DNA of 41,184 nt from a virus (IMGVR_UViG_3300045988_018086:1-41184), one strand, 5' to 3'; positions 10,773-32,071 are shown, numbered from the stretch's first letter. Numbers and translations: made by a program. The notes: a model not told the origin generated them from the sequence alone.

Positions 10773-11036
10773 CTATTCCAGAATATTCCTCACGTAATCC
10801 TGCAACATGAACACTTTAAGTCTCAGTTGCCGTACACATTCTGCGTTCTGGACGTCAATAGCTAAATCCTCGTCCGCGTCGTTACTTGGCAGTGCCAGTT
10901 TGCACGGTGGCTGCATCATCGTCGTATCCGGGGATGGAATTGGCGTTTGCGACGGCGCGGGACTTGAGCTGCACGCGCTCAGGGTCAAAAGTGCACACGC
11001 TGCGGCCAGGCGTTTTAATGTACTTAACGACTTCAC
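10773..11036 (-). CDS. Outer-membrane spanin (Rz1-like lipoprotein), partly overlapping the i-spanin gene in another frame
   Basis: Signal peptide with lipobox LSAC, proline-rich mature part; GTG start with AGAGGT RBS; overlaps 10882..11268. Confidence 0.65.
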   Translation of the reverse strand: MKSLSTLKRLAAACALLTLSACSSSPAPSQTPIPSPDTTMMQPPCKLALPSNDADEDLAIDVQNAECVRQLRLKVFMLQDYVRNILE

Positions 11037-11268
11037 GGGTGATTACCTCTGATTTCGTCTTGCCTTCGTTATCAGCGGCGGCGGCCTTCGATTCATCCTG
11101 CTGCTGCCGTTGTGTTTTCTTAGCTAACTCAGCCTGTGCTTTCTGCTGTTGCTGCGAAACGAGATTCGCCCGGCCTCCGTTCCAGCCGCTGCGATACTGG
11201 TAGATGCCGTGTGCGTAAGCCAGGATGATGAAACATGCTCCCGCTACGACAGTTGCTTTAAGATTCAT
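10882..11268 (-). CDS. Inner-membrane spanin (Rz-like)
   Basis: N-terminal transmembrane segment followed by Gln/Ala/Lys-rich helical periplasmic domain; AAAGGGGA RBS. Confidence 0.65.
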   Translation of the reverse strand: MNLKATVVAGACFIILAYAHGIYQYRSGWNGGRANLVSQQQQKAQAELAKKTQRQQQDESKAAAADNEGKTKSEVITREVVKYIKTPGRSVCTFDPERVQLKSRAVANANSIPGYDDDAATVQTGTAK

Positions 11269-11290
11269 GTTTCCCCTTTCTCGATAAGTA

Positions 11291-11320
11291 AAGCCCCGCC
11301 TTAAAGCGGGGCTTTACTTA
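11291..11320. terminator. Hairpin (AAGCCCCGC-loop-GCGGGGCTT), candidate terminator/attenuator at the end of the conserved leader
   Basis: 9-bp GC-rich stem; moderate U-run on both strands. Confidence 0.4.
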
Positions 11321-11375
11321 TCATTTAAACATAGAAACGGCGTAATCTCAGTAAACCAGTTACTTTTTACACAAG

Positions 11376-11525
11376 CAATAGAGTATGGCCCTTCCGAACG
11401 CGTCAGCGTAACTACACTCAGGACTTACGTCCCGCTCCGTTACCTGCCCGCGCCGCGGTCGCTTGTTCATACTTCACAAGCTCAGGTGGAGCTTAGCACA
11501 TTTTTGGTGAAAAGTCAACTATTCG
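11376..11525 (-). promoter_or_regulatory. Copy A of a ~145-bp conserved element: promoter TTGACT-N17-TGcTAAGCT (minus strand, approx 11518 to 11490) plus conserved transcribed leader
   Basis: Blocks identical or near-identical to 23041..23190 (same orientation); promoter hexamers at same spacing in both. Confidence 0.5.
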
Positions 11526-11582
11526 AATAGTTTATTCCAACATTTACAATTGAGTGGAATAACTGGAATAATCACAGGCACT

Positions 11583-11607
11583 AAAAAGCCCCTTTCGGGG
11601 CTTCAGT
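11583..11607 (-). terminator. Intrinsic terminator (AGCCCC-TTTC-GGGGCT plus T5) after the Ig-like protein gene
   Basis: Stem and U-run on minus strand. Confidence 0.55.
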
Positions 11608-12069
11608 TTATTCTGGCTTAGTAACCTTCGCTGCTTTACTTACGGCCTCTATACCATCGGCATCAGTGACTTTAACGAAGTATTCACCAACTGCGTTAAC
11701 CGTCAGAGACAGAGCCTCTTCCGGGGCGTTTACCACTTCCTTCCCGTCTTTGTACCAGGTCAGCGCATATGGTGCTTTGCCCGCCTTAACTTCGACAGCG
11801 ATATTTGCGCTGCCGTCTGCCAGTTCCGTGTCTTTCGGTTGTACGGAGAAATACACATCACCGGCATCCGCCAGGTACTGAATCTCATAAAGCATACCTG
11901 CCGCTGGCAGCGCAATACCGGTCTTGTCCGCAAACGGCATATCGTCCACTGGTGTTCCGAGTACACTTTCGTCTTCAATAAACACCACGTTCTCGCCAGA
12001 GCCAGACACGCGGGAGTACTGTACTACGCGACGCGAAGGTACGTCGGTTACTTTGAAAAAGCCCATCAT
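11608..12069 (-). CDS. Ig-like domain protein (possible capsid decoration protein)
   Basis: Beta-rich sequence with ALTWYKDG motif typical of bacterial Ig-like domains; position after head morphogenesis gene. Confidence 0.45.
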   Translation of the reverse strand: MMGFFKVTDVPSRRVVQYSRVSGSGENVVFIEDESVLGTPVDDMPFADKTGIALPAAGMLYEIQYLADAGDVYFSVQPKDTELADGSANIAVEVKAGKAPYALTWYKDGKEVVNAPEEALSLTVNAVGEYFVKVTDADGIEAVSKAAKVTKPE

Positions 12070-13112
12070 TAATCCCCTTTCAGATAATCAGCAACACGTT
12101 TATCGAGTTCCGCCATCTGCTTAAGCGTGAGCGGATTCCCGAAACCATCTACAGATATTACGCGAAACTCTTCCGGCGATATACCGCTGTTACGGAAAAT
12201 CTTACCTCGCACCGGGCCGAGCGCCTGGTCCTGAAACCACGCCGGTTGTTGTTTAAGGAACTCGTAGTAAGTGGTGTCTACGCTTACCTGAGTGCCACCT
12301 TCCGCGCCTTTAGCCGCGCGTTTTGCGCCTTTATCGAGGAAGTCGAACTCGGAACTGATTACCGGAGCCGTGCACGACCGGCAGTTCGGATGGGCAGGGG
12401 GCATCGGCCCCTTACCAATTTCCCACGTCATCCCGTCTCTGACCCTGCAAATCGTACTGGTGCGGCTGTCAAGCGTTGACACCCACTCGTACTTCTCTAT
12501 GATGTCGTCGTTCTGGCGGTACGTCTCGTTACGGGCTTCGTTGGACACGTGAGACAGCGCGGTGCGGATGACGGTAGCGGCGTTACGCTCAGAGATGTCA
12601 GCCAGCCCACCGGCGCCTACTACATTCTTAACAATCTGCCGTGTTGTTTGACCTTGTACAAAGCCCATCTTAACGCCGGTTACAAGACGTGCTACTTCCG
12701 TTTCACCCCAGCCCGCCATCAGCTTAGTGAAATCGACAGGCTTGTCGCTTAATGAGAGCGGCTGAAACTCGGCAGCGGCCCACACCTGTTCAGCGGTAGG
12801 CGTAACAAATTCCGCATTAACGTTGGCCGTCAGCGTTTTTACGTTCCACTCAGCCTCATATGCCGCCAGTTCCTTAAGGTCATCTGTCAGCTTTGTTTGC
12901 CAGTCGCCCGTAAGTCCGGTCAGTGTTTCTTCCAGGTCACGTAACAGTTTATTCAGTCGTGCAGTGCTCCGACTGTCGTCACCGAATAACAGCACCTGCC
13001 GTTTGATTTCGTCCCGCATTTCCTGAAGGAACGGCGCGAGGTCTTTCACCTCACCGGATGCGGTGCGTTGCAGCCATATCTGGTGACTGATTAGGGATGT
13101 AAGTAAGCTCAT
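12069..13112 (-). CDS. Minor head / head morphogenesis protein (MuF / SPP1 gp7 family); start at ATG 13112
   Basis: Signature LDSRTSTIC...HPNCRC; AGGAGGG RBS before ATG 13112. Confidence 0.65.
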   Translation of the reverse strand: MSLLTSLISHQIWLQRTASGEVKDLAPFLQEMRDEIKRQVLLFGDDSRSTARLNKLLRDLEETLTGLTGDWQTKLTDDLKELAAYEAEWNVKTLTANVNAEFVTPTAEQVWAAAEFQPLSLSDKPVDFTKLMAGWGETEVARLVTGVKMGFVQGQTTRQIVKNVVGAGGLADISERNAATVIRTALSHVSNEARNETYRQNDDIIEKYEWVSTLDSRTSTICRVRDGMTWEIGKGPMPPAHPNCRSCTAPVISSEFDFLDKGAKRAAKGAEGGTQVSVDTTYYEFLKQQPAWFQDQALGPVRGKIFRNSGISPEEFRVISVDGFGNPLTLKQMAELDKRVADYLKGD

Positions 13113-13156
13113 GTGCCCTCCTGTAGTATCACCAGTGTAACGCATAAAAATAATAT

Positions 13157-13185
13157 TTGCAGACACCAATATAATAGGGTACTAT
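13157..13185 (+). promoter_or_regulatory. Promoter TTGCAG-N17-TACTAT with AATAG-N4-CTATT operator, near-identical to 2793..2821
   Basis: Identical 24-nt core CCAATATAATAGGGTACTATTCA; 27 nt upstream of ATG 13213. Confidence 0.5.
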
Positions 13186-13212
13186 TCATTTAACTTAAAC
13201 AGGAGATGCAAA

Positions 13213-13734
13213 ATGGTTACTACAGTAATTACTTTCCCCGCGTATGTAGGGGCGAAAATCTGCAGGGCTAAAAATGACGTACGCTACTACCTGAACGCTT
13301 TTTACATAGACCCTGAAGGGTTGATAGTGTCTACGGACGGTCATAGATTGTTCTGCGACAATGTGAAGACAAACGTTGAAACGGGAGTTCTCATTGACAC
13401 CAAAGGGAGGGAGCCTTCTAAATTTAACTACGCGGAGGTAGACCACGACAACGGCAGCGTTTCTTTCTATGACGATAGTCGTGCGCTTATATGTACACTT
13501 CCGGTGGATGTTGTAGACGGAAAATTTCCTGACTGGCGACGCGTGGCGCGCATTACACCGGATGCCGTCGGTAGCATAGGGTTCACTCTGCGCTATTTGG
13601 CAGACGCGTACAAGATTTCTAAGGCATACAAAAATGAAATTGCTCGTTTCGATTTCCAGGACCAAACCAGAGGATGCAAAATATCGTTTTCAGACACTGC
13701 GTTTATGGTGCTAATGCCCGCAAGATTTAAATAA
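13213..13734 (+). CDS. DnaN (beta sliding clamp)-like protein, truncated: domain II plus C-terminal half of domain III, no domain I
   Basis: Blocks DVRYYLN..TDGHRL, VDGKFPDWRRV and C-terminal MVLMPARF match E. coli DnaN DVRYYLNG..TDGHRL, VDGRFPDYRRV and YVVMPMRL as I recall that sequence; AGGAG RBS; own promoter and terminator. Confidence 0.55.
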   Translation: MVTTVITFPAYVGAKICRAKNDVRYYLNAFYIDPEGLIVSTDGHRLFCDNVKTNVETGVLIDTKGREPSKFNYAEVDHDNGSVSFYDDSRALICTLPVDVVDGKFPDWRRVARITPDAVGSIGFTLRYLADAYKISKAYKNEIARFDFQDQTRGCKISFSDTAFMVLMPARFK

Positions 13735-13738
13735 AACT

Positions 13739-13760
13739 AAGGCCCCATTGCGGGGCCTTT
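13739..13760. terminator. Bidirectional terminator hairpin (AAGGCCCC-ATTG-CGGGGCCTT)
   Basis: GC stem with T-runs on both strands between convergent genes. Confidence 0.55.
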
Positions 13761-13764
13761 TTCT

Positions 13765-15249
13765 TTACTCCTGTTGTTGCTGCGCCGACTGCGGAATTTC
13801 TCCCGCTACCTGAGTAACCGCACCTAACGGCAGTGGTGCGTCCTCAATAGCGTTCTGGATGTCTTCGTCCGTCCAGTCAGTTACGCCCGCCTTACGCAAT
13901 GCCGCGTAATAAGCTGTAGCTGGTAACAGGCCCGCGTTAATATCCGCCATCCACTGCGCGCGGTCCTGAGCGGTCATTGGTTGCAGGAAGAACTCCATGT
14001 TCAGTTTGAACTCAATTTCAGTGCTGTCGCTAATCCCAAGCATACCCGCGACCCAGCGCAACGCATCGGTATACGCCATGCTTACGTTACGTGCGATTGT
14101 TGCCATAACGGACGTATCAGCGCCGCGTTGCAGGCGTGCCGATTCCGCGGTGATTTGCTGCGTCGGGGTAATAAGCTGTGCACCAATCTGGATTGCCTGG
14201 TTCTCTTTATCCAACATGTTCTGCTTGGCTAGGTTGTTCTCACCGGCCTGGACCAGAAACGCATTGCCGCCGTAACCGATGTTATGGCCAGAACGTGACC
14301 CCATACGCACTCCGTGAGGGTTGGCTTCTTTCCATTGTCCCATGCTCATGTTCTCACCGGGGGCGATGAACAGAGTAGGCTGGCCTACGACGAAGCTGGA
14401 CTCCTCATTGTCCGCGCTGTTGCGGAAGTGCCCGATATTAAGTTCAGCCAACGGCAGCAAAGGTGCATCGTCAGGGGTTGAGTCGTTATTTCCCGCGCCG
14501 ATGAACGTGAACGGAATCACCCCGACCGGAATATTACCGAGTTTCGGGAATATTTCGATATAGCCACCTTCCGTCAGTGCACCTTTCTGGTTAAAGCGGT
14601 ACAGACGCTGGCGATACTGGCCTTCGAAAATATCAAGGACTCGGTATTGCTCGCCGTAGTTGGGGCTGAACTCATCCGCGCCATCGGTGTACTCGTATTC
14701 CTCACGCAATACAACCATAACCACACGATTAACAGACCCGACGCGCTGGAGACGCCAGTTGATGATATTCTCTGCGGTGTAGAAAGCGATTGTTGGGTTT
14801 AGTAAACCCTCGTTTTGCTCTGCCATGGTAGCTACTTCTACCGCGGGGGCGTCAACCAGCAAGCCACCGCGACCAACAGCATCAATCTCATACAGAGTAT
14901 CCTGTGCGTGCTGCCACAGGCCAACGCCCGACCCGTCACAGTTAGTGGTCAGGTATTCCATCTGAGACGGAATAATCATCTCTGGGTCTTTGCGCATTAC
15001 GCTGCCGACCATGCCTGAAAGCGTTCGCTTGGTGAAGTTGTAGCAAATTGCCCCCGCTTCGTATTCAGCCTGACGCTGGCGACCGTAAACCGGGTCCGGC
15101 TCGTTCTTACTGACGTCACGTAGATACGATGTCAGGTCGCCAGAAAGCGCATGTCGCACCTTCTGCCACTTAGGGAAATACTCTTCGTACTGGCGGTGGC
15201 GGGTTTTAACGTTCTGCCCTTGCCCTGCGTTAATGTTTGCGGAAACCAT
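13765..15249 (-). CDS. Portal protein
   Basis: 494 aa, immediately downstream of terminase large subunit; AGAGGA RBS. Confidence 0.65.
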   Translation of the reverse strand: MVSANINAGQGQNVKTRHRQYEEYFPKWQKVRHALSGDLTSYLRDVSKNEPDPVYGRQRQAEYEAGAICYNFTKRTLSGMVGSVMRKDPEMIIPSQMEYLTTNCDGSGVGLWQHAQDTLYEIDAVGRGGLLVDAPAVEVATMAEQNEGLLNPTIAFYTAENIINWRLQRVGSVNRVVMVVLREEYEYTDGADEFSPNYGEQYRVLDIFEGQYRQRLYRFNQKGALTEGGYIEIFPKLGNIPVGVIPFTFIGAGNNDSTPDDAPLLPLAELNIGHFRNSADNEESSFVVGQPTLFIAPGENMSMGQWKEANPHGVRMGSRSGHNIGYGGNAFLVQAGENNLAKQNMLDKENQAIQIGAQLITPTQQITAESARLQRGADTSVMATIARNVSMAYTDALRWVAGMLGISDSTEIEFKLNMEFFLQPMTAQDRAQWMADINAGLLPATAYYAALRKAGVTDWTDEDIQNAIEDAPLPLGAVTQVAGEIPQSAQQQQE

Positions 15250-15260
15250 TTGTTGTCCTC

Positions 15261-16511
15261 TTAAAGTGCGAAAGTCACCGGGATGTTGATTACTGGTTTA
15301 ACCACCGGCATCTCGTAAACTACAGGATAGCCGAGAGCATCCGCCATATGGTCAATGATGCCGTCTTTAGCTGGCTCTCCGTTATCATCGTATGCCTGCT
15401 GCTCCAGCGTCTTCGCTATCTCGGGGCATAAGTGGTCATTAACCCACAGCTTACCTTTTTCCAGTGCGGTATTCACGGCTAAAACACGGTCTTTAACCGG
15501 AGGGTTGGCGGATTTAGCGCGAACATCGAAACCGGCCTGCTGGAGTAACGCAATATCTGAGATTGACGCCGAGTTGGTCTTGCGGTTCTTGCCGCTGGCG
15601 TCCGGGTAAACGACTATGCGGTGGCCCTGCGACTTCCACTTCTCAGTAATTACACGCACGGTGTCCGGCGTATCAAACAGACCTTTCAGTTCTGCCACCG
15701 CGTGCCAGCCGTCTTTACGTTGCACATACACGGCGCTGGCGTTCTTCGTAACGTTGAAGTCCTGCCCGATGTACAGTGTATCGCCCGGTTGAATTGTCTC
15801 TTTGCTGCGGTGCTTGCGACGGTCATACGCATAATACACGCTGCCGGATGTCAGGTTAACGAACTCACCGTTCAGGTACGCGTTAATCAGTTGCGCGGGG
15901 TAAGTCTCGGTCAGTGAGCTAATGTAGTCAGGCGGCAGGAATCGCGCGTTCTCGTGTGTAGAAGCCTGCACCATCGAGTAACTCGGCGTCGGGTTCTCTT
16001 TGAACTTGGCGTAGACGAACTTGAACCCTTCCGGTGTCGTGGTGACAGAGATGTGGTTAGTTACGCCGGGGATAACCAGACGCATACGGGCGACTATTTT
16101 GTTCCACGCCAGCTCAGCTTTCTCACGGCTCAATACATCAAGCTCATCCACGACCGCAGCAGCGATTTTGAAGCCGACTATCGAGCCTGGGTTATCCATA
16201 GAACGGCAGATAACTGTACCGAGCACCGTCTTACCGCGAGTAACCACGACTTCTTTGTCGCCAGATTTAACCAGCACATCGAGGCCGAGCAGGTTAGCGG
16301 CTTCCTCAAATGTCGGGTAGAAGATGTCACGGATAGCCGGGTATGTCGGGCCGAAGTAACCCAGGCGCGTACCTGGATGCTTGAGCATAAACGTAAGCAG
16401 GTCAAGGCAGCCAACAAATGTCTTTCCGCTGCCGAAGCCGCCGACATAGGCTTTGTATTTGTTATCGCAATTCAGGAACAGTGCCTGCGGTGCGGATAGC
16501 TTAATACTCAT
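15261..16511 (-). CDS. terL: Terminase large subunit
   Basis: Walker A GGFGSGKT near N-terminus, C-terminal nuclease-like region; overlaps small subunit stop. Confidence 0.8.
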   Translation of the reverse strand: MSIKLSAPQALFLNCDNKYKAYVGGFGSGKTFVGCLDLLTFMLKHPGTRLGYFGPTYPAIRDIFYPTFEEAANLLGLDVLVKSGDKEVVVTRGKTVLGTVICRSMDNPGSIVGFKIAAAVVDELDVLSREKAELAWNKIVARMRLVIPGVTNHISVTTTPEGFKFVYAKFKENPTPSYSMVQASTHENARFLPPDYISSLTETYPAQLINAYLNGEFVNLTSGSVYYAYDRRKHRSKETIQPGDTLYIGQDFNVTKNASAVYVQRKDGWHAVAELKGLFDTPDTVRVITEKWKSQGHRIVVYPDASGKNRKTNSASISDIALLQQAGFDVRAKSANPPVKDRVLAVNTALEKGKLWVNDHLCPEIAKTLEQQAYDDNGEPAKDGIIDHMADALGYPVVYEMPVVKPVINIPVTFAL

Positions 16512-17053
16512 TCCTCTACCTCACCCATATTCGTTGTTACAATTTTACCTACAGGCTCTGCAACACTAAAAATAATCTCAGTCGGTGCCGTTTCTTCGGT
16601 GGATTCGACTGGTTTCTCTTTACCGAGGCCCAGTTTAGCTGCGGCGAACGTAGCAGAGATGCCCGCGGCCCCTGTCTCAGTGAAATATGCCTCTTCCAGC
16701 GCCTGTGCTGTTTCATAGGCTTCTGCAAATGCGGGAATCTCACGCAGCCACAGCTTAATAATCGGGATAGTTACGCCGATGTGTAAGGCGAAGCGGGCCA
16801 GTGACGGGGGTTTATCCTGAATCAGCGGGCGTTCGTCACCCTTAGACGTAGGCACGAGTTCCCACGACGTGCGGTCGAAGAACTCGATTAGCGCGTCGCA
16901 ATAATCCGGGTCCCACAGCGCGGCGGAATTACGGGATGATTGATAAAGGCTCTGTTTACCGCGCGGTCGTTTACGGCGGCGGTTTGCACTAACAGCTTCT
17001 TCATGTGCAGCTTGCACCACCTCTGGCGATGGCTGCTTGAGTTTCAGCTTCAT
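16508..17053 (-). CDS. terS: Terminase small subunit (start at ATG 17053)
   Basis: Basic N-terminal region RRRKRPRGK, position upstream of terL with 4-nt overlap; AAGGGGA RBS. Confidence 0.5.
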   Translation of the reverse strand: MKLKLKQPSPEVVQAAHEEAVSANRRRKRPRGKQSLYQSSRNSAALWDPDYCDALIEFFDRTSWELVPTSKGDERPLIQDKPPSLARFALHIGVTIPIIKLWLREIPAFAEAYETAQALEEAYFTETGAAGISATFAAAKLGLGKEKPVESTEETAPTEIIFSVAEPVGKIVTTNMGEVEE

Positions 17054-17150
17054 AGAATCCCCTTGCATATGCGTCTGACCATCAGAGCGCATCAGACGCG
17101 CCCTACGCGTCTAAAGGGATTATATAAGGTGATTGGGCAGGATGTACAGA

Positions 17151-17170
17151 AAAGCCCTCGGTAGAGGGCT
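17151..17170 (-). terminator. Intrinsic terminator (AAGCCCTC-TACC-GAGGGCTT plus U-run) on minus strand
   Basis: 8-bp stem followed by TTTTCTGT on minus strand. Confidence 0.55.
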
Positions 17171-17272
17171 TGTATCAGTTGTATAGGCCGTGGCGTGGTG
17201 CTCTTTTACCGTCGCCGCCGTAATGGTCGTTAGCTACGGGAATGGCCCGGGCGTTAGGGATGATTAGTAGTC

Positions 17273-17431
17273 TCATTTGAAGAAACCATCCTTGACAAGC
17301 TGACGGTATAGGTTAGCTGCGTAACGCTCTGCCTGGCCTTTGCGCCGAAATATTTTCCCATTAACTGAATACTTATTTAACTCTGGCTCGTACCAAACTT
17401 GGTTGTCGATGAACTCCAGAATACTAATCAT
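17273..17431 (-). CDS. Small protein (52 aa), ATGA-coupled to upstream gene
   Basis: AGAGGAGAG RBS; start overlaps stop of 17428..17688; under 60 aa so absent from track. Confidence 0.3.
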   Translation of the reverse strand: MISILEFIDNQVWYEPELNKYSVNGKIFRRKGQAERYAANLYRQLVKDGFFK

Positions 17432-17688
17432 TCCCCGCTCTCCTCTTTAGCAATACGTTGCTCAGTTTTAGTGATACCCCGGCGCGTGAATAACACCGGG
17501 CTTGTCTTAACGTGCGTCATCAGACGGTTGTTATAAATTACATGGCGCTCGCAGTTAACGTCTTTGCTGTACTTGGCAATCGTCATTTCGTTGATGCCGG
17601 TTTGTCGGCATGTCTCAGCCATCGTGCCGTATTCTTTAATCAGGTTTGGAATGCTGGTAATCATCCTAAGAAATTCCTCGTTGTCCAC
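17428..17688 (-). CDS. Small HTH-like DNA-binding protein (candidate regulator); start may be the ATG 8 codons in
   Basis: Segment GTMAETCRQTGINEMTIAKYSKD resembles a helix-turn-helix. Confidence 0.35.
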   Translation of the reverse strand: MDNEEFLRMITSIPNLIKEYGTMAETCRQTGINEMTIAKYSKDVNCERHVIYNNRLMTHVKTSPVLFTRRGITKTEQRIAKEESGE

Positions 17689-17833
17689 ATCGCATTCGGA
17701 TATTTGTTATCGCGGTCCTGCACTACGGCAACCATGTTACCGCGTTGCACCAGGCAAAAGTGCCGTTGTTGCTCGCCGTTGTAACGACGCCAGATTGCCT
17801 CTTCGATTGCTGCGTTGATGTCACTGAACATAT
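17663..17833 (-). CDS. Small hypothetical protein (56 aa)
   Basis: ATG with GGGGTG RBS; stop overlaps next start. Confidence 0.3.
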
Positions 17834-18016
17834 TCACCCCACTATCTCATCACCGAGCCACGCCGTTTCTCGTATATCGTCGACCACACAAGCGGCGTGC
17901 TCACGGCTAATTGCAAAAATGTAGAAGCTGAACTTCTTCCCGTCGGCGTCGATGTGGTTAACCGAGTAGGGTTTCCACAGGACACCATCAATTACTACTG
18001 GTTTAGGCGACTCCAT
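17834..18016 (-). CDS. Hypothetical protein (60 aa)
   Basis: ORF in early/middle minus operon with coupled start/stop. Confidence 0.35.
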   Translation of the reverse strand: MESPKPVVIDGVLWKPYSVNHIDADGKKFSFYIFAISREHAACVVDDIRETAWLGDEIVG

Positions 18017-18260
18017 ACGCTTTACCGCATTTTAAGCATGTGGCTCGATGCACCCCATCAACTAAATGCAGGCGGTAATCATGCTCGCAGGCGTTCATCT
18101 TTTCCTCTTCTCCTCTCAACAACATGAGAAGAACCTTAAATGCGGCTAACTGGTACTCACCGTTAATTGACAGTTGCCCGCCTAACGTCTGTTTCTCCGA
18201 CTCAAGCACCAGAATACGGCGCTCGAGCGATGCGATTGTGATTTTAGGCATTGGTGTCAC
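18003..18260 (-). CDS. Small protein with coiled-coil and C-terminal zinc-ribbon-like Cys/His cluster
   Basis: CEHD...CLKCG motif. Confidence 0.35.
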   Translation of the reverse strand: MTPMPKITIASLERRILVLESEKQTLGGQLSINGEYQLAAFKVLLMLLRGEEEKMNACEHDYRLHLVDGVHRATCLKCGKAYGVA

Positions 18261-18429
18261 CTTTGTTCAGGTTGAAGCGGTTAATCAGTTCACGGCGTGT
18301 CTCGTATAGCGACTCAACCATTTGCTCGGCTACCGCGATTTTAGTATTCAGGACGTACATCACGTGCCCTATGTCTACGCCGCCGTCAACGGCCTCTACC
18401 ATCATCTTTTCATATTCGCGGTCAGTCAT
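18244..18429 (-). CDS. Hypothetical protein (start likely ATG 18429)
   Basis: ATGA overlap with upstream small ORF. Confidence 0.35.
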   Translation of the reverse strand: MTDREYEKMMVEAVDGGVDIGHVMYVLNTKIAVAEQMVESLYETRRELINRFNLNKGDTNA

Positions 18430-18581
18430 TTCTTCTCTCCCCACATGCGATTGAGATACTTGTTCTTGTCCGGCCCATGGAAACTGTTACGTTTCATCAG
18501 TTCCTCGCGTGTCGGGAACGGAGTGTGACTTACTTTACGACCTACGCGTAACGGTTGGCTTATCTGACCTTGTTCGCTCAT
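18426..18581 (-). CDS. Small hypothetical protein (51 aa)
   Basis: AGGAGAG RBS, ATGA coupling at both ends. Confidence 0.3.
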   Translation of the reverse strand: MSEQGQISQPLRVGRKVSHTPFPTREELMKRNSFHGPDKNKYLNRMWGEKK

Positions 18582-18727
18582 TTCTTCTCTCCTGCATAAG
18601 CTGCTTTCAGTGTCTGCATCGCGGCGAACCAGAACGCGTCCGCAGGAATGCTGTTGCTCAGGTTACTAACGGCGATGCGTGCCATCAGTTGCGCATCTTT
18701 GAATGCTTCGGTATCTGTGATTTTCAT
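18578..18727 (-). CDS. Small hypothetical protein (49 aa)
   Basis: GGAG RBS, ATGA coupling with downstream ORF; first gene after promoter at ~18789. Confidence 0.3.
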   Translation of the reverse strand: MKITDTEAFKDAQLMARIAVSNLSNSIPADAFWFAAMQTLKAAYAGEKK

Positions 18728-18760
18728 CTTCTCTACTCCGTTCTCGTTGTCGATGGAGTA

Positions 18761-18789
18761 AATATAATTGGTGTGAGAGTAATAGTCAA
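18761..18789 (-). promoter_or_regulatory. Sigma70-like promoter TTGACT-N17-TATATT on minus strand
   Basis: Hexamers with 17-nt spacing, just downstream of terminator 18818..18842. Confidence 0.45.
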
Positions 18790-18817
18790 CTAGTCATTGC
18801 GGAAGATAGATAAAAAA

Positions 18818-18842
18818 ATCCCGGCTGGGTCAGGGCCGGGAT
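18818..18842 (-). terminator. Intrinsic terminator (ATCCCGGC-loop-GCCGGGAT plus T7) ending the lysis transcript
   Basis: 8-bp stem and T7 run on minus strand. Confidence 0.6.
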
Positions 18843-19053
18843 AAAACTGGAGAGCAGAGGGATGGAACAGGAGGTGATTTAAGTATCGTCGGATTAGTCT
18901 TAGGTGTCAACCTTCGCCGTAACCGACCTGCTCGTCAATATCGTCACGAGATTTAACTGGGTTGGTGAACTCTTGCAGTGCCATAACGGCCTCCATTGGC
19001 AAATACGAAAAACTTGGCCTAACCAGAATACTAAACGCCTTCGTATTCGTCCA

Positions 19054-19539
19054 TCATTTAACAGCCCTCCCAATAGCCTCAGCCTCTTGCCACGGCTTAC
19101 CTTCGAACAGCGCCAGACGCCCGGCGGTACGGCGACGCAGGCCAAGTAGTGGTTTGCCGTTCTGGTTGATGAACAGCGCCAGCTTAGCCCGCAGTGTTGC
19201 AGTATCACCAGAACGCAGTGCCTTGCCTGTGCCCGTAGTAGACGCAATCACGCCAGCACCTGCGTTATACACCAGGTCACACACCGCATCGAACTGTGCC
19301 TGTGTAAGCGAATGGTGCGCCGCGGCATCAACCGCAGCTACGGCTTTAGACATATCGCGATTCAGTAACAGGAGGCCTTGCCCCGGGGTGATGGTCTTAC
19401 CCGGGGTTACGTCCGGTCCGTAGTGCCCGTAGCCAATAGTCAGGTACTTCTCGTTCGGCGTAGCACGATACGCAGTTCCGCGGAATCCCTCAAATGCAGC
19501 GGTAAAATGCAATCCATTATCTGAAATATTTCGAGACAC
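19054..19539 (-). CDS. Endolysin, phage lysozyme (GH24, T4/P22 lysozyme-like); GTG start at 19539
   Basis: EGFRGTAY...TIGYGH motif; GGAGG RBS 8 nt before GTG; follows two holin-like genes. Confidence 0.65.
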   Translation of the reverse strand: MSRNISDNGLHFTAAFEGFRGTAYRATPNEKYLTIGYGHYGPDVTPGKTITPGQGLLLLNRDMSKAVAAVDAAAHHSLTQAQFDAVCDLVYNAGAGVIASTTGTGKALRSGDTATLRAKLALFINQNGKPLLGLRRRTAGRLALFEGKPWQEAEAIGRAVK

Positions 19540-19789
19540 GCTTATATCCTCCGTATGACAACCACGCCTGACGAATCTGGCGCAGCGCAACTAGTGTGAT
19601 TAACGTCCCGGGCAACGCAGGCGACATGCTGCCCTGTAGCAGGTGGATACACCCGGCGGCGCAGACGATAGCGGTCAGGATATAGAGCACCCTACCAAAT
19701 AGCCCGTCGTCAACGCTGGGGTGATATACATTAAACAGCGATGTGCCCCCGATTGCCAGCATACCGCCGAACCAGAATAGCTCATTCAT
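19517..19789 (-). CDS. Holin-like membrane protein (second of pair; holin or antiholin)
   Basis: Two or three hydrophobic helices, charged C-terminus, directly upstream of endolysin. Confidence 0.45.
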   Translation of the reverse strand: MNELFWFGGMLAIGGTSLFNVYHPSVDDGLFGRVLYILTAIVCAAGCIHLLQGSMSPALPGTLITLVALRQIRQAWLSYGGYKRVSKYFR

Positions 19790-20090
19790 CCGGGCCTCCT
19801 CGACGTGAGATGTATTCTCCGGCGACGATACCAGAGAGACGGGAATAGATAGGCATCCAGAGAATGGCGATGATGAATCCGAGGCCAGCTATCTCGCGCT
19901 CGCCGGTAATACCGAACCATTGGGCAGCGAGAGGTGCACCAAATACGGCGCAGGTGAAGCCGGTTGCGATAAAGCAGAAGCCGTCGATAGGGCCGGAAAT
20001 AACGGACTTATGTTGTCGTAGTCCGATAACCCCTCCGGCTAGTGCGGCAGCGAGAAGCCACCCCGTCACTGTTTCAGTAAATTTATCCAA
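19782..20090 (-). CDS. Holin-like membrane protein
   Basis: Three hydrophobic segments, ~100 aa, start of lysis cassette. Confidence 0.45.
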   Translation of the reverse strand: MDKFTETVTGWLLAAALAGGVIGLRQHKSVISGPIDGFCFIATGFTCAVFGAPLAAQWFGITGEREIAGLGFIIAILWMPIYSRLSGIVAGEYISRRGGPDE

Positions 20091-20296
20091 GATGAATCCT
20101 CCAGGTGCGTATTAAGTATGCAGTAACTGGAGGATAGCACGGTTAGGAATTATCTTAATAACGGTTTATTTATGTCTCCAGATGTATTGTCGTCTCTGTG
20201 GTTTCGTCGGAATATCATCGTATCCAAGCGATTTCCAGTAATTAAATAACCGATTAGCTATAGCTGCACGTTCCTTTGTTTTGAACTCACCGAGAT

Positions 20297-20458
20297 TCAC
20301 GGCCTTCCCGTTCTGGAAGCCACAGGCGCGGATAGCTTTGCGTCGGGCCTGAATCTCTGGGTACAGCGCGTTACGGCGGCGCTTGTATATTCGGACGGTT
20401 GCTCTCGGTGACAGCGGCGCAAGGCCGCTTCGTTTAGGATGTCAGTTGCGAGGCTCAT
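20297..20458 (-). CDS. Small hypothetical protein (53 aa; start at internal ATG, ATGA-coupled)
   Basis: ATG overlaps stop of 20455..20643. Confidence 0.25.
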   Translation of the reverse strand: MSLATDILNEAALRRCHREQPSEYTSAAVTRCTQRFRPDAKLSAPVASRTGRP

Positions 20459-20643
20459 ATGTCGAGAATCTCGCAGGCCATTTCTTCGGTAACTTTCGAA
20501 CAAGGTGCGTACAATACCTGGTCGGCGAAGTTACGCAGTTTGCGTTCCAGTTCCGCGTAATCTTCGTAACTTACATACTCCCCATTTACTTTACTATCGA
20601 AATGACCATCTTCATAAAAGCCTTTGCGAATAACCATAATCAC
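20455..20643 (-). CDS. Hypothetical acidic protein
   Basis: ORF in early minus operon, coupled to neighbours. Confidence 0.35.
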   Translation of the reverse strand: MIMVIRKGFYEDGHFDSKVNGEYVSYEDYAELERKLRNFADQVLYAPCSKVTEEMACEILDI

Positions 20644-20861
20644 TTCTCCTGTTTACCAAGTCGCTTAGGTGAGCAGATAGCGCGTACCTCTGAATCGATG
20701 GGCTTGTCACCCTGAAACAGGAAGTGTGCGTTCTCTGCGGCGCGTGCCGCGGACTGGCACGCCTCCGTCGAATAAAACGTTTCCGATGCCGCTAGTTGCA
20801 TCTGGCCCGCCGACAGTACCCAGATAAATAAGATGCTGGTCATCAGAAGTATTCCCCGCAC
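20640..20861 (-). CDS. Small secreted/periplasmic protein with predicted signal peptide
   Basis: N-terminal hydrophobic signal-like segment LLMTSILFIWVLSA followed by ~50-aa Cys-containing domain. Confidence 0.4.
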   Translation of the reverse strand: MRGILLMTSILFIWVLSAGQMQLAASETFYSTEACQSAARAAENAHFLFQGDKPIDSEVRAICSPKRLGKQEK

Positions 20862-21388
20862 GTTTTACATACTTTCGTACCGAACGGCGCGGAGCCATCT
20901 GTTATTACATAATAGAAACTGTGTTTGCACTCCCGTGTACAGGCTGTTGGCCCATACTCAAGTCCGTCCCACTCACGCTTGCCGCATTCGCAGCAAAACC
21001 GGCTACCGGGCACGTTGTCCTTGTGGCCTTCGGCAATAAACAATCCTGGAGCGATAATCCAATTGTGGTCACATTCCTGCGTATCTTCTTTTCGGCAACC
21101 AGATTGCTCCGAACCGTACGCACCTTTGCGGATAAGTTTGTAGGCCTCCACGTCACCAGTAGCCTCGACCAATGCCAGATGCAACTCCTTAACTTGCCCT
21201 GTCAGGTGCGATATGTGCTCAGATTTCTTAATGTTGTCTTCCCGCAACTCCTTAATCTGCGCCGACGCATCACGTAACTGATTCTTAAGTGACTGCACCT
21301 CATGCGCCAGGTCTTCGCTCCGGCTGTTATTTACCTGCTGCCGTAGCTGGTCGATCAGGTACTCGAATATTTCGTTTTTGTTACTCAT
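20843..21388 (-). CDS. Coiled-coil protein with C-terminal Cys-rich zinc-binding-like domain (start likely ATG 21388)
   Basis: Heptad-rich N-terminus; multiple CxxC pairs at C-terminus. Confidence 0.4.
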   Translation of the reverse strand: MSNKNEIFEYLIDQLRQQVNNSRSEDLAHEVQSLKNQLRDASAQIKELREDNIKKSEHISHLTGQVKELHLALVEATGDVEAYKLIRKGAYGSEQSGCRKEDTQECDHNWIIAPGLFIAEGHKDNVPGSRFCCECGKREWDGLEYGPTACTRECKHSFYYVITDGSAPFGTKVCKTCGEYF

Positions 21389-21518
21389 CAGCTTCACCCC
21401 TTTTCGCATCCACCCCGACTAGCAGCGATTTAGTGTCGCCGTCACACACCGAAGTGCTACTAATTATTTCGTAAGCGTCTACCAGTTCGCCTAAAGTCCA
21501 GCTACCGTACCAGCCCAT
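21381..21518 (-). CDS. Small hypothetical protein (45 aa)
   Basis: Strong RBS GAGAGGAGAG; first ORF after promoter at ~21577. Confidence 0.3.
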   Translation of the reverse strand: MGWYGSWTLGELVDAYEIISSTSVCDGDTKSLLVGVDAKRGEADE

Positions 21519-21548
21519 CTCTGTCTCTCCTCTCGCTTGTGTAAATGA

Positions 21549-21577
21549 ATAGTAGCCTATTCTATCTTAGTGTGCAA
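21549..21577 (-). promoter_or_regulatory. Promoter TTGCAC-N17-TACTAT with AATAG-N4-CTATT operator (minus strand)
   Basis: Same architecture as the promoters at 2793, 13157 and 22843. Confidence 0.45.
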
Positions 21578-21584
21578 GTAAATT

Positions 21585-21758
21585 TTATTGGTGTGTTATG
21601 GAGTCGATGAATGCCAGTAACTCCCTTTCCGCTTCTGCCTCTCTTTCTTCAAGCGACCAGGTAGCGGATTCCTCTGTCGCCGTTGCTAAATCGGTTTTCG
21701 CATCAACCATCGTGTCGATTAACGTGATTAGTCGTTCAGCCTGTTCTTTAGTAATCAT
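21585..21758 (-). CDS. Small hypothetical protein (57 aa)
   Basis: AGGAG RBS 9 nt upstream of ATG; the overlapping + strand track ORF 21598..21819 is low-complexity antisense. Confidence 0.3.
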   Translation of the reverse strand: MITKEQAERLITLIDTMVDAKTDLATATEESATWSLEEREAEAERELLAFIDSITHQ

Positions 21759-21892
21759 TGTTGCATCTCCTGCAATAGTCGCTTCGATTGTTGCGTTTGA
21801 TGAAAGTGTCGCCTTTTGACGACACTAAGTTAAAGTTGTACGCTGCTGTGTAGCAGCGTAAGTCACTCAGTAAAATCCCAAACTATTGAACA

Positions 21893-22093
21893 TCACACTT
21901 CTGGCGGCTCGGGTAACGGCATCCAGTGCGTCACGTACTTATCGTAGTGATTCCAGAAAGGCTTTCTCCCGTCATCAGGAACTATGTAATAATCGTGCTG
22001 AACTGCGTTATTTAACGTTTCATACACCAGGAACTCTTTATCCGTATACCCATTACCCGGCAGCATCTCACTACACTTAATCCACTCACCCAT
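21893..22093 (-). CDS. Small phage protein with C-terminal W..WMPLPEPP motif (DUF551-like)
   Basis: Motif recognition only. Confidence 0.4.
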   Translation of the reverse strand: MGEWIKCSEMLPGNGYTDKEFLVYETLNNAVQHDYYIVPDDGRKPFWNHYDKYVTHWMPLPEPPEV

Positions 22094-22243
22094 ACCTCAC
22101 ACCTCTTTCAATCAAGGATTGCACACCAGCTTTCCACGCCCGCCACGCGAGACGCGTCTTAACGTTCAGGTACTCTTTCTTTGAACCCTTGTTAACCGGC
22201 AGACCCTCGACCACAGCCCACCGTTCAAATGCTTCTCTCATAC
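22094..22243 (-). CDS. Small hypothetical protein (about 50 aa)
   Basis: ORF with overlapping stop/start to 21893..22093; not in track. Confidence 0.25.
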
Positions 22244-22426
22244 CAGAACCTCACATTCATCCCGATACACGAACAATAACGACCCTTTGTACTCAATCAT
22301 AAAACCATAATGGTTGATGCTGAACGCCGGAAAAACATCACCTACCGAGATTCCGAAATCTATAAGCCTGCGGTCAGTTATACGGACAAGCCTGCGGTCA
22401 GTTATACGGATTCGCATTAACGGCAA
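22238..22426 (-). CDS. Hypothetical protein containing an in-frame 24-bp tandem duplication
   Basis: Duplicated octapeptide RITDRRL(V/I) from tandem repeat at ~22364..22411. Confidence 0.35.
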   Translation of the reverse strand: MPLMRIRITDRRLVRITDRRLIDFGISVGDVFPAFSINHYGFMIEYKGSLLFVYRDECEVLV

Positions 22427-22617
22427 CCTCCCTCAGAGTCGTCGGCACAAGCATCACGATTCGATGCCGTTTTGATTGCCTGTAAGCTATTTAGCATTTG
22501 CTGGCTATCCATCGTAATAATTGTAATCCCGTCCGATAAATGCACCTCGTAGCGTTCAGCTACGAAATATATTTCCTCGAAATCATGATGTTTCAGTTCT
22601 TCAAATAATTCTTCCAT
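22417..22617 (-). CDS. Hypothetical acidic protein (ATG at 22617; track start 22620 is GTG)
   Basis: ORF in early operon. Confidence 0.35.
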   Translation of the reverse strand: MEELFEELKHHDFEEIYFVAERYEVHLSDGITIITMDSQQMLNSLQAIKTASNRDACADDSEGGCR

Positions 22618-22808
22618 CACTTCGCCCCTTTGAATTTAAAATTGTTGCCAATGAGTTTTAAGTTCTCCTCTTCTACGTATATTTGTGAATTTACCCCTCT
22701 CACCTTTTGCACGGTCACTACGTACTCTCCGGGAAATAAATTAGATTTTAATTCAATTATGCCGTGTTCACCGTCGGCGCATTTAACCAACTGACCATTC
22801 TTAAACAT
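22617..22808 (-). CDS. Hypothetical protein, first gene of minus early operon (ATG 22808; track start 22817 is GTG)
   Basis: AGGAG 8 nt upstream of ATG 22808; promoter immediately upstream. Confidence 0.4.
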   Translation of the reverse strand: MFKNGQLVKCADGEHGIIELKSNLFPGEYVVTVQKVRGVNSQIYVEEENLKLIGNNFKFKGAK

Positions 22809-22842
22809 AACCCTCACTCCTCTGTCTCGTCCCGATAAGTGA

Positions 22843-22871
22843 ATAGTATCCTATTATGTTGGGGCGTGCAA
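22843..22871 (-). promoter_or_regulatory. Early promoter TTGCAC-N17-TACTAT with AATAG-N4-CTATT operator (minus strand)
   Basis: Hexamers, spacing and operator shared with 2793, 13157 and 21549 promoters. Confidence 0.5.
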
Positions 22872-23040
22872 GAGATTAGTTACGTTGCCGTTGTGATTCT
22901 TTCGTTTCTTAAAGGAGTACGCAACGCAGTGGGTGGGCGTTAGCCCACCCCAGCGGAGTGAAGTACTCTCTACCTCACTCACTCACGGCAACTATAGAAA
23001 CTTTTAATTATCAGTGACTTGGGTATTTAGGCGGGATTAA

Positions 23041-23190
23041 CAATAGACTTTGGCCCTTCCGAAAGCGCCAGCGGAACTACACTCAAGTGCCTAATGGCAC
23101 GCGTTGCGTTCCCTGCCGCTCCGCGGTCGCTTGCGATATCTCACAAGCTCAGTGAAGCTTAGCATATTTTTAAGTAAAAGTCAATACTAG
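23041..23190 (-). promoter_or_regulatory. Copy B of the ~145-bp conserved element: promoter TTGACT-N17-TGcTAAGCT (approx 23184 to 23156, minus strand) plus conserved leader
   Basis: Homologous to 11376..11525 with identical promoter hexamers. Confidence 0.5.
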
Positions 23191-23231
23191 TAGCATCTTT
23201 TGTATCTTAGTAACTTTGTGTGGTGTTTTGG

Positions 23232-23260
23232 TTGCTTTTACAAAGTTACCGCCTTATACT
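23232..23260 (+). promoter_or_regulatory. Plus-strand early promoter TTGCTT-N17-TATACT
   Basis: Hexamers 30 nt upstream of ATG 23290 with AGGAG RBS between. Confidence 0.45.
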
Positions 23261-23289
23261 TCGGTACATCTTACATAGGAGAACGTGAA

Positions 23290-23460
23290 ATGACTATCAA
23301 TGAAGTAGCTGAACGTATTGGGGTGACACGTCAGACAATTAATAACTGGATTAAGAGTGGAAAGTTTCCTGATTGCAGCGTTAAAGTAATGGGTCGCCGG
23401 ATGCCGGGGACATTTGACCGTAATAAAGTTGAAGCGTGGATTAAGGAGAATGTGAAATGA
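23290..23460 (+). CDS. AlpA/MerR-like HTH DNA-binding protein (start at internal ATG; track start 23200 is an alternative start codon)
   Basis: INEVAERIGVTRQTINNWIKSG helix-turn-helix; AGGAG RBS. Confidence 0.5.
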   Translation: MTINEVAERIGVTRQTINNWIKSGKFPDCSVKVMGRRMPGTFDRNKVEAWIKENVK

Positions 23461-23747
23461 AAGGTGTAATTTTCCACGATAAAGAAAATGACAGTGCTTA
23501 TATGGTTTATTTAGTGCAAGGCGAGTACGCGTTATGCTTTAACGTTTCTTGTAAACTGGACTCTTATTCACCGTTTTGCGTTACAGAAGAATTGCAGTTG
23601 ATTAGTCTCCGAAGACTCAGCACAATGTCGGCTTCCATCGATGTCTCTGACCACTTAGCGTACGTTTGTCAGTATTTCGGTGATGAGATTGTTGTAGATT
23701 ATTATCGTAAGTACGCGCATTTGATGGAATGTCTGGCTAATAGATAA
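23457..23747 (+). CDS. Hypothetical protein
   Basis: ORF with ATGA overlap to upstream gene. Confidence 0.4.
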   Translation: MKGVIFHDKENDSAYMVYLVQGEYALCFNVSCKLDSYSPFCVTEELQLISLRRLSTMSASIDVSDHLAYVCQYFGDEIVVDYYRKYAHLMECLANR

Positions 23748-26353: not shown

Positions 26354-26367
26354 AATAGTACCATATT
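26354..26367. promoter_or_regulatory. Operator-like site AATAG-TACC-ATATT in the regulator's own upstream region
   Basis: Near-copy of the AATAG-N4-CTATT element, 30 nt upstream of the HTH gene start. Confidence 0.4.
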
Positions 26368-26387
26368 AATTATTTTAGAAAAGCCCG

Positions 26388-26416
26388 TTGACAAGTGAAT
26401 AGTTCGCTATTATAGT
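26388..26416 (+). promoter_or_regulatory. Promoter TTGACA-N17-TATAGT with AATAG-TTCG-CTATT operator in the spacer
   Basis: Consensus -35, 17-nt spacer, perfect 5-bp inverted repeat. Confidence 0.6.
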
Positions 26417-26447
26417 TAGCCCATACCAAACGAGAGGAGAATAAATA

Positions 26448-28481: not shown

Positions 28482-28485
28482 AGTG

Positions 28486-28514
28486 TTGACACCTGAATAG
28501 TTAGCTATTATAGT
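28486..28514 (+). promoter_or_regulatory. Promoter TTGACA-N17-TATAGT with AATAG-TTAG-CTATT operator in the spacer
   Basis: Near-identical to 26388..26416. Confidence 0.6.
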
Positions 28515-28567
28515 TCTAATCACTGGCCGGGCAGTTCCCGGAGTAAACTGAAAAGCGAGAAATCACG

Positions 28568-31790: not shown

Positions 31791-32071
31791 CCCCGGAAGG
31801 CAAAATACAGAAATACGCAAAAGAGCGATTCGAGGCCATTGGTGGCCTCGTTCGTAAACTTTCCTACGAGGGGCGTTCCGGCGCTCCCGACCTGCTGGTA
31901 ATTCTCCCAGACGGCATAGTCTGGTTTGTCGAGGTGAAGAAAGACGAAAACACGAAGCCAGACCCACACCAGCTACGTGAGCATGAGCGTATGCGCAAAC
32001 GCGGCGCGAATGTTTTTGTCGTTGGTTCGTTTAAACAGGTTGACGACCTAATAGCGAGCTATTATAGTTAA
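31787..32071 (+). CDS. VRR-NUC domain nuclease (PD-(D/E)XK fold)
   Basis: PDLLVILPDG..FVEVK motif. Confidence 0.6.
   Translation: MTPEGKIQKYAKERFEAIGGLVRKLSYEGRSGAPDLLVILPDGIVWFVEVKKDENTKPDPHQLREHERMRKRGANVFVVGSFKQVDDLIASYYS

Follow-up and report, generated by a model that had tools for sequence, protein, structure and literature searches.

HK022 put and its close relatives form essentially the only phage family in which the nascent transcript is, to our knowledge, known to control RNA polymerase by itself, without the help of a protein. The put sites of HK022, putL and putR, set the precedent for antitermination in cis by an RNA that needs no protein and is made just after a phage promoter (PMC9378689). 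Here we describe a leader RNA in a viral DNA of 41,184 nucleotides (nt), IMGVR_UViG_3300045988_018086:1-41184, which was analysed over its whole length and is called the window. The leader is present twice on the minus strand, as copy B and, 11.7 kb beyond it, as copy A. It is a new, clade-restricted family of structured leader RNA that was previously undescribed; its homology, fold, strand, distribution and genomic position were established. The copy-A region matched ~180 phage records at 90-99 % identity in a BLAST search of 2.3 Gb of phage DNA. These were Escherichia Kagunavirus (K1G, K1H and others) and Salmonella Jerseyvirus, both Guernseyvirinae, and the matches place the window in the genus Kagunavirus, virulent phages of E. 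coli. Kagunavirus genome papers give predicted promoters and terminators only, and word searches in the text of two of them met with neither 'non-coding' nor a leader RNA.

The first-pass annotation of the window had suggested two homologous promoter-plus-leader units in the same orientation. Alignment of 11376-11518 with 23041-23184, both on the minus strand, bore this out: the mean column identity was 76 % and all sequence blocks quoted in the annotation were present. Identity rises to 89 % in the ungapped core (11376-11420 / 23041-23085). The window has just nine families of direct repeats, and this core is one of them (family D4). Copy B as BLAST query reached copy-A-type sequences in the phage DNA at E~1e-22, thus the similarity of the copies is far beyond chance. 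Each promoter is followed by a homologous leader of ~105 nt. The promoters are predicted to be of the host type, sigma-70 with an extended -10 element. At copy A (11490-11518, minus strand) the -35 hexamer TTGACT (11518-11513) is separated by a 17-nt spacer ending in TGC from the -10 hexamer TAAGCT (11495-11490); copy B (23156-23184, minus strand) repeats this arrangement with TTGACT at 23184-23179 and TAAGCT at 23161-23156. The motif TTGACT-N17-TGcTAAGCT of the first-pass annotation was found as given, its spacing of 17 nt holding only with TGc counted inside the spacer. A simple consensus promoter scan listed neither promoter, since TAAGCT matches TATAAT in 3/6 positions; the prediction draws on the near-consensus -35, the TGn extension, A2 and T6 of the -10 and the conservation across genera. 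The copy-A promoter is kept in ~180 phages, with the form TAGAYT-N17-TACGCT in Jerseyvirus. Transcription would start at ~11483 for copy A and ~23149 for copy B. Noncoding positions 11550-11251 share 94-100 % identity in 50-nt windows with Salmonella Jerseyvirus S100, the flanking genes only 58-90 %.

Single-sequence folding of the minus-strand leaders, proposed in the first-pass annotation as a check, gave for each copy a short hairpin at the 5' end and then a long, irregular one (copy B, z = -3.3). In the resulting model the leader RNA consists of a 5'-terminal stem-loop (SL-I), an irregular hairpin of ~65 nt (SL-II) and a conserved unpaired tail (closing CGG, then AAGGGYCR-N3-UCUAUUG). In copy A, SL-I occupies 11461-11481 (GCUUGU-(9 nt)-ACAAGC) and SL-II 11394-11458, all on the minus strand. 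SL-II rises from the base CCG/CGG through GGCGCG/CGCGUU, CAG/CUG and GUAAC/GUUAC; its upper part, also within 11394-11458, holds an internal loop GGAG / GAGUGUA and the apical hairpin CGGGAC-GUAA-GUCCUG. The unpaired tail of copy A (AAGGGCCAUACUCUAUUG, 11376-11393) is followed by a distal leader (11323-11375) with the smaller conserved blocks ACUGAGAUU and GCCGU, which are common to copy A, copy B and the Jerseyvirus leaders. Copy B, likewise on the minus strand, forms SL-I at 23129-23148 (GCUUGUG-(6 nt)-CGCAAGC), SL-II at 23059-23126 (CCG/CGG, GGAGCG/CGCUUU, CAG/CUG, GGAAC/GUUCC, apical GUGCC-AUUA-GGCAC) and the tail AAGGGCCAAAGUCUAUUG at 23041-23058. SL-I begins at most ~5 nt from the predicted transcription start, and at every locus and in every genus the element lies next to its promoter. 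Conservation is highest in ACCGC at the 5' base, in CGG at the 3' base and in the unpaired tail AAGGGYCR-N3-UCUAUUG. The conserved 3' tail is single-stranded (AAGGGCCA..UCUAUUG); its GGAAGGG-YC-R motif is kept across three genera, and its U-rich motif differs between genera (UCUAUUG / UAUAUUG / UCUUUUAC / UCUUCUUC / UCUGUUAC). An alternative hairpin in the tail (C/U105-A/G115, GG/CC) finds some support in C-G, U-A and C.A variants but is incompatible with the CCG/CGG base.

The fold was examined for covariation in a MAFFT alignment of 44 distinct sequences, which came from the phage database and, through two scans, from viral contigs. The structure was derived from type A, the leader type nearly invariant in most phages; 3' partners slid by 1-3 columns and 500 shuffles served as controls. 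In this alignment 88.7 % of the cells were paired, against 29-43 % with slid partners, and eight pairs were changed on both sides. The covariation score was 0.199 compared with at most 0.095 for slid partners, and 0/500 shuffles reached the observed value. A covariance-model alignment, which is fitted to the structure and hence leans towards it, gave 92.0 % paired cells, 10 pairs with changes on both sides and a score of 0.233 versus at most 0.090. The clearest pair belongs to GGNGCG/CGCNUU, a helix close to the SL-II base, with C-G in 21, U-A in 20 and A-U in 3 sequences. The two G-U pairs beside it are invariant (44/44); on the other strand they would be A-C, therefore the structured RNA is the minus-strand transcript. 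SL-I was replaced helix for helix: GCUUGU..ACAAGC in Kagunavirus, ACGCU-UUC-AGCGU in Jerseyvirus, UUCGU-UCU-ACGAA in Cornellvirus SP-031. The apical hairpin varied by type in the same manner (GGGAC/GUCC, GUGCC/GGCAC, GUGC/GCAC, ACGUC/GACGU, GGGCGU/ACGCCC, GCC/GGC), and in Jerseyvirus, SP-031 and phiEap-2 unrelated sequences still fold as SL-I and apical hairpins. Conserved structure and covariation, whose absence the first-pass annotation had named as grounds against its conserved RNA, were thus both found.

Among the Kagunavirus leaders we distinguish type A, A2, B1 (copy B of the window), B2 and B3, in addition to a Jerseyvirus type. The covariance model of the element scored 143 and 96 bits at the two copies of the window and showed no third; it detected two in the annotated relative Shashou, and one in Jerseyvirus SGPC, at the A locus. 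Cornellvirus SP-031 and two unclassified Guernseyvirinae, phiEap-2 and GRNsp27, gave weak matches of 13.5-13.7 bits (E 0.11 in a whole-genome search, ~0.007 in a small search) at their syntenic A locus; there the leader layout is as in Kagunavirus, with the tail GCGGAAGGGUCGGAAUCUUUUAC. By this model Kagunaviruses have exactly two copies, Jerseyviruses one and some Cornellvirus-type phages a divergent one, and in all of them the element stands at the head of the spanin-scaffold-capsid operon; altogether it is present in ~200 sequenced Kaguna-, Jersey- and Cornellvirus-type phages. Among 5,426 complete genomes of E. coli there was no match, host or prophage. Scanning 100,044 species genomes for the pattern gave 114 matches; 80 of these loci were checked with the model, two were true and the rest were chance matches in GC-rich DNA. 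The two true ones, L106 (JAEWLW010000073.1, 'Bacillota MAG') and L104 (Taishania pollutisoli scaffold48), are short contigs that resemble Guernseyvirinae phage DNA binned or assembled with bacterial genomes. From these searches in phages and bacteria the family is apparently confined to the Guernseyvirinae. The A2 core occupies the A locus of L046 and the B locus of L055 and L072, with upstream and tail sequences remaining locus-specific, and Ec1-ASingh carries a B1-like apex at the A locus. The leader core thus appears to be an autonomous module that is exchanged between the A and B loci. In every genome examined with both copies the two cores differ, which is what selection against identical direct repeats at a distance of 11.7 kb would produce. 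At the copy-B-equivalent locus of SGPC (L090 25480-25870, minus strand) the promoter is TTGACA-N17-TAAGTT and the long hairpin domain is of another kind (z = -2.85). Further downstream, GGGCGAGCUAUAUU, AUCUGAUUU and GCCGUAG are shared with the tail and leader of the element. This locus may hold a functional analogue with another 5' domain.

The first-pass annotation had compared the element with HK022 put and with nut sites. The put RNAs suppress terminators in cis, need no protein factor and are blocked by mutations in the zinc-binding domain of the RNA polymerase beta' subunit. Against Rfam 15 the whole window gave no match at the gathering threshold; at a permissive threshold only generic terminator-like sub-threshold matches appeared at 11283-11368 and nothing at copy B. 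Rfam holds no put family, and the HK022 put region itself was unmatched. A put covariance model (R1) was therefore built from eight put RNAs collected by BLAST (HK022 putL and putR, HK639, phiEt88, CobraSix, S9-5, UPF_BP1 and PdC23), which recovered HK022 putL with 96.8 bits and putR with 53.7 bits. The model found no match in the window, Shashou or SGPC (E<=10) and, with filters off over 11000-23500, none on the minus strand at 11376-11490 or 23041-23155. The invariant put blocks, GAACGGC of stem I and GGCGGGUUCAGGAUGAACGGCAAU of stem II, are in neither copy, so membership in the put family is excluded. The remaining likeness is generic: two similar but diverged copies per genome, each with two stem-loops with bulges, lie downstream of a host-type promoter (immediately so for putL), with terminators or hairpins further on and no dedicated antiterminator protein evident. 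The element differs from put in its length (~105 nt against ~70 nt), in an SL-I that is not conserved in sequence, in a conserved unpaired 3' tail that put lacks, and in its carrier, a virulent siphovirus instead of a lambdoid phage. With lambdoid nut sites and the boxB-boxA-boxC leaders of rrn operons it shares a promoter-proximal hairpin, a conserved single-stranded U/C-rich motif and two copies heading long operons, but it lacks a canonical boxA (CGCUCUUA / GCUCUUUAACAA), and, unlike in nut, the U-rich motif follows SL-II and varies by genus. A boxA (CGCUCUUA-like) upstream of either hairpin, followed by a boxB with a GNRA-like loop, was not found, and the suggested nut-like anatomy was given up on these grounds. 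Copy A also recalls the lambda PR'-qut-6S RNA-tR' region, with a late-operon promoter, an untranslated leader of ~190 nt, a hairpin, and lysis and structural genes. Unlike lambda PR'-qut, the initial transcribed region has no conserved -10-like pause inducer (the NANNAT hexamer AAGTAT at ~+17 is confined to type A and missing from copy B and the Jerseyvirus type), the same RNA also stands at an early-region promoter, and a Q-family protein was not found among 20 small early-region proteins.

The gene map was taken from Shashou, whose plus strand corresponds to the minus strand of the window. The Guernseyvirinae relatives are virulent siphoviruses of ~42 kb, and an RNA polymerase gene is not among the annotations of Shashou. 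Copy B lies in a divergent region between a plus-strand operon for a helix-turn-helix (HTH) protein, primase-helicase and DNA polymerase and a long opposite operon with small early genes, an HslV-like protease, holin/antiholin/endolysin, further small genes, terminase, portal and head morphogenesis. Copy A is preceded by a strong terminator (11603-11586) and followed by the i/o-spanin, scaffold, major capsid, connector and tail-tube genes. The first gene of this operon, i-spanin, starts at 11278-11266 (minus strand) with a Shine-Dalgarno (SD) sequence AAGGGG (11278-11273) and an ATG at 11268. In every locus a GC-rich hairpin follows the element, 60-100 nt downstream. At copy A it directly precedes the SD, as the first-pass annotation had noted for a hairpin at 11291-11320; its true span is 11322-11283, with a perfect 17-bp stem (GAUAAGUAAAGCCCCGC / GCGGGGCUUUACUUAUC) and the loop UUUAAG. 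The inner stem of 7 bp, GCCCCGC/GCGGGGC, is kept by compensatory changes between Kagunavirus and Jerseyvirus (GC/CG/UA, GC/AU). Sequences 3' of this hairpin are UUAGCGUAU in Jerseyvirus and UGUUACGAU in Cornellvirus, and the Cornellvirus-type leaders have a hairpin at the equivalent place before the ribosome-binding site (RBS). At copy B the hairpin GGGUGGGC-UAAC-GCCCACCC (22931-22950, minus strand) lies ~200 nt into the transcript; other Kagunaviruses show GGUGCC-UUCG-GGCACC and then GUUCGUUUCGUUUCG. A second promoter, TTGCAC-N17-TACTAT (22843-22871, minus strand), with the palindrome AATAG-N4-CTATT in its spacer and here called operator-type, is located between the copy-B leader and the first open reading frame (ORF; ATG 22808) and is conserved in SGPC. 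Strong intrinsic terminators are found downstream at 18846-18812, 17170-17150 and 13759-13739, in addition to the one at 11603-11586. The terminator at 13739-13759, after the portal gene, is bidirectional; between portal and head-morphogenesis genes lies an opposite-strand gene for a sliding-clamp-like protein with its own operator-type promoter (13154-13734). No promoter was seen for the head-morphogenesis gene, which may depend on read-through. Promoter scan and gene map revealed no recognisable promoter for the spanin-capsid operon other than copy A, thus capsid transcripts must pass the pre-RBS hairpin.

The leader RNA probably acts on its own transcript, and we tentatively favour, as possible more than probable, a cis-acting elongation or read-through element that would be put-like by analogy and not by descent. 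Such an autonomous module would work in cis on the transcription complex that has just made it. It would confer on RNA polymerase a resistance to pausing or termination, first at the GC-rich hairpin 60-100 nt further on and then at later terminators. Copy-A transcripts would run into the spanin-scaffold-capsid-tail genes and copy-B transcripts through the early, lysis and packaging region; those from neighbouring operator-type promoters would lack such read-through, so that copy B in tandem with one would allow two transcript classes. An element that alters elongation in cis fits because the module is autonomous, promoter-proximal and strongly constrained, heads two terminator-containing units and is always followed by a hairpin. 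Several observations weigh against this interpretation. Without similarity to put, the analogy carries no mechanistic weight. The hairpins after copies A and B may be no terminators at all. Only the Kagunavirus-type leaders have a U-tract (UUUACUUAU) after the inner pre-RBS stem, and in the window this tract pairs as part of the 17-bp stem; the copy-B hairpin of the window (22950-22931) has none. Of the terminator-like hairpin that the first-pass annotation placed behind a promoter-proximal RNA, the GC-rich, compensated stem was recovered; the pre-RBS hairpin may be a weak terminator or attenuator, or a hairpin related to processing, stability or translation. Fresh promoters follow the terminators at ~18830 (TTGACT-17-TATATT at 18789) and ~17160 (TGTACA-18-TATAAT at 17148), so read-through is not obviously required for the units beyond them. 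Jerseyviruses do without the element at the B locus, where SGPC gave no model match even with filters off. At the A locus, Cornellvirus Shemara (L209 200-520) and Pantoea phage AH01 (L210 200-530) carry an unrelated multi-hairpin 5' domain, which stands behind a TATAAT promoter and is fused to an SP-031-type 3' leader and pre-RBS hairpin (Shemara retains AUAGUCUAUU); the A-locus leader is therefore a mosaic. In Salmonella phage SLMP1 (Jerseyvirus; L001 592-640) the apical ~50 nt of SL-II are missing and GGUGC-GGAC-GCAUU is left. Either this is a natural deletion that leaves the phage viable, or the assembly is in error; the record matters for deciding which parts the RNA cannot lose.

In another reading, the leader would protect the message. 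SL-I and SL-II could block the 5'-end-dependent decay by RNase E and the pre-RBS hairpin could be an RNase III or stability site, giving a late mRNA that is long-lived and highly expressed. SL-I is found at the extreme 5' end in all genera despite its unconserved sequence, as expected of a generic protective hairpin, the pre-RBS hairpin is maintained by compensation without a consistent U-tract and is a perfect 17-bp duplex in the window, and copy A heads the most highly needed structural genes. A role as mRNA stabiliser or processing module is nevertheless unlikely, since the near-invariant base of SL-II and the unpaired tail common to three genera are left unexplained, as is copy B upstream of a second promoter that serves the first genes. 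The parts conserved most strongly, unpaired (GGAAGGGYC, UCUAUUG) or in an internal loop (AG-N-GUA opposite GAA/GGA), are typical of protein-binding sites, and the region encodes many small early proteins without known function. Tail and internal loop of SL-II might accordingly be bound by a phage protein or by host Nus or other factors that affect termination, translation or timing, a leader nut-like in its logic. The boxA sequence is GCUCUUUAAC, and the SP-031 tail UCUUUUAC resembles it. This likeness is lost elsewhere (UCUAUUG, UAUAUUG, UCUUCUUC, UCUGUUAC), the order boxA then boxB is missing, and one element serves both an early-region and a late structural-gene promoter. Among 20 small early-region proteins, Pfam matches were restricted to HTH, NinH-like and DUF families, with no N, Q or other antiterminator domain; most of these proteins had no match of any kind, and this is a weak negative. 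Factor binding is held to be about as improbable as the stabiliser.

Alternatively, the two loci could be paralogous genes for small RNAs, each extending over ~190-220 nt between its promoter and its hairpin, with host or phage targets in trans; the downstream genes would be transcribed by leak-through or from other promoters. Nothing in the region is better conserved than the whole stretch between promoter and hairpin, behind copy B a hairpin comes first and then a separate promoter for the first genes, and the hairpin of B2/B3-type Kagunaviruses has a U-rich tail. Against this stand the lack of another visible promoter for the spanin-capsid operon behind copy A, the missing proper U-tracts in the window copy B, Jerseyvirus and Cornellvirus-type hairpins, the absence within the window of a target complementary to the conserved tail, and a structured part unmatched by the small-RNA families of Rfam. 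We regard this as less likely still than the two preceding explanations. A mere duplication of a promoter region by recombination, with no function at the RNA level, is very improbable: cores do move between the two loci, so recombination happens, but compensatory changes and helix-for-helix replacement across three genera, a conservation above that of the adjacent genes and the strand-specific G-U pairs argue against it. Returning to the read-through element, a bolder version of it is rather doubtful at present. On this view the leader would be a self-sufficient RNA of a second class, independent in its evolutionary origin, that reprograms host RNA polymerase (anti-pausing or antitermination). 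A whole subfamily of virulent siphoviruses would use it as an exchangeable 5' module, and at the Jerseyvirus B locus and in Shemara/AH01-type phages alternative, non-homologous domains would take over its task. If true, a structurally unrelated element with a similar job in virulent phages would mean that the strategy arose more than once, and a second protein-free RNA system would be available for structural study. Even with a different function, an unannotated, covariation-supported RNA family heads the capsid operon of phages that include many phage-therapy candidates, and the compact promoter-plus-leader cassette may be of use in synthetic biology.

Other readings of the element were tried and dropped. 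A search for tRNA and transfer-messenger RNA (tmRNA) found none. No ORF of at least 60 amino acids overlaps the element, tiny ORFs after the SD-like GGAAGGG change length or vanish between types, and single-base indels occur among the close relatives L005, L037 and L048. GenBank records carry 'hypothetical proteins' of 35-36 amino acids over the element on either strand (Shashou L057 5621-5731 and 37530-37637, and several other records); these are probably spurious, because indels separate close relatives. The tail fits a boxA in SP-031 only (UCUUUUAC) and this reading is not conserved. A GCGGT-like stretch considered as an ops/RfaH site includes a column that covaries with its partner and is therefore structural. 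The CCCCGC/GCGGGG stem was compared by eye with the repeat of type I-E clustered regularly interspaced short palindromic repeats (CRISPR); the Jerseyvirus stem differs (GCCCGGC), other terminators of the window are similar, and the mimic was discarded. A pseudoknot between SL-I loop and tail (AGUAUG/CAUACU, type A) is not conserved in B1, B3 and the Jerseyvirus type.

Upstream of the copy-A promoter, an inverted repeat TTATTCC-N17-GGAATAA (11532-11562, minus strand) and a palindrome CTATTCGAATAG (11519-11530, minus strand), which touches the -35 hexamer, were observed; both are missing at copy B. The inverted repeat also occurs in Jerseyvirus and Cornellvirus-type phages, and the features at 11519-11562 as a whole are kept there. 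An activator or a repressor of the capsid-operon promoter may bind this segment. A second ATTATTCC is located near the inverted repeat at 11572-11565. The palindrome CTATTCGAATAG is the operator AATAG-N4-CTATT in inverted arrangement, and the operator itself is present in eight other phage promoters. These eight sigma-70-like promoters share the palindrome within the -35/-10 spacer: six are on the plus strand (2790-2828, 13154-13192, 26354-26367, 26374-26417, 28472-28515 and 32026-32069) and two on the minus strand (21548-21561 and 22843-22871). A Kagunavirus paper (PMC9825357) reported the same motif, obtained with PHIRE, as 'phage RNA polymerase promoters', a label that contrasts with Shashou, in which a phage RNA polymerase is not annotated. 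The palindrome probably serves a phage HTH regulator as its operator. Two sub-types of these promoters were seen, TTGACA..TATAGT and TTGCAC..TACTAT. In the copy-B leader a tetranucleotide microsatellite, (GTGA)3, occupies 22974-22986 on the minus strand; other Kagunaviruses (L051-L054, ~560-600) carry a (CTCA)3-7 microsatellite in the opposite orientation and with variable copy number.

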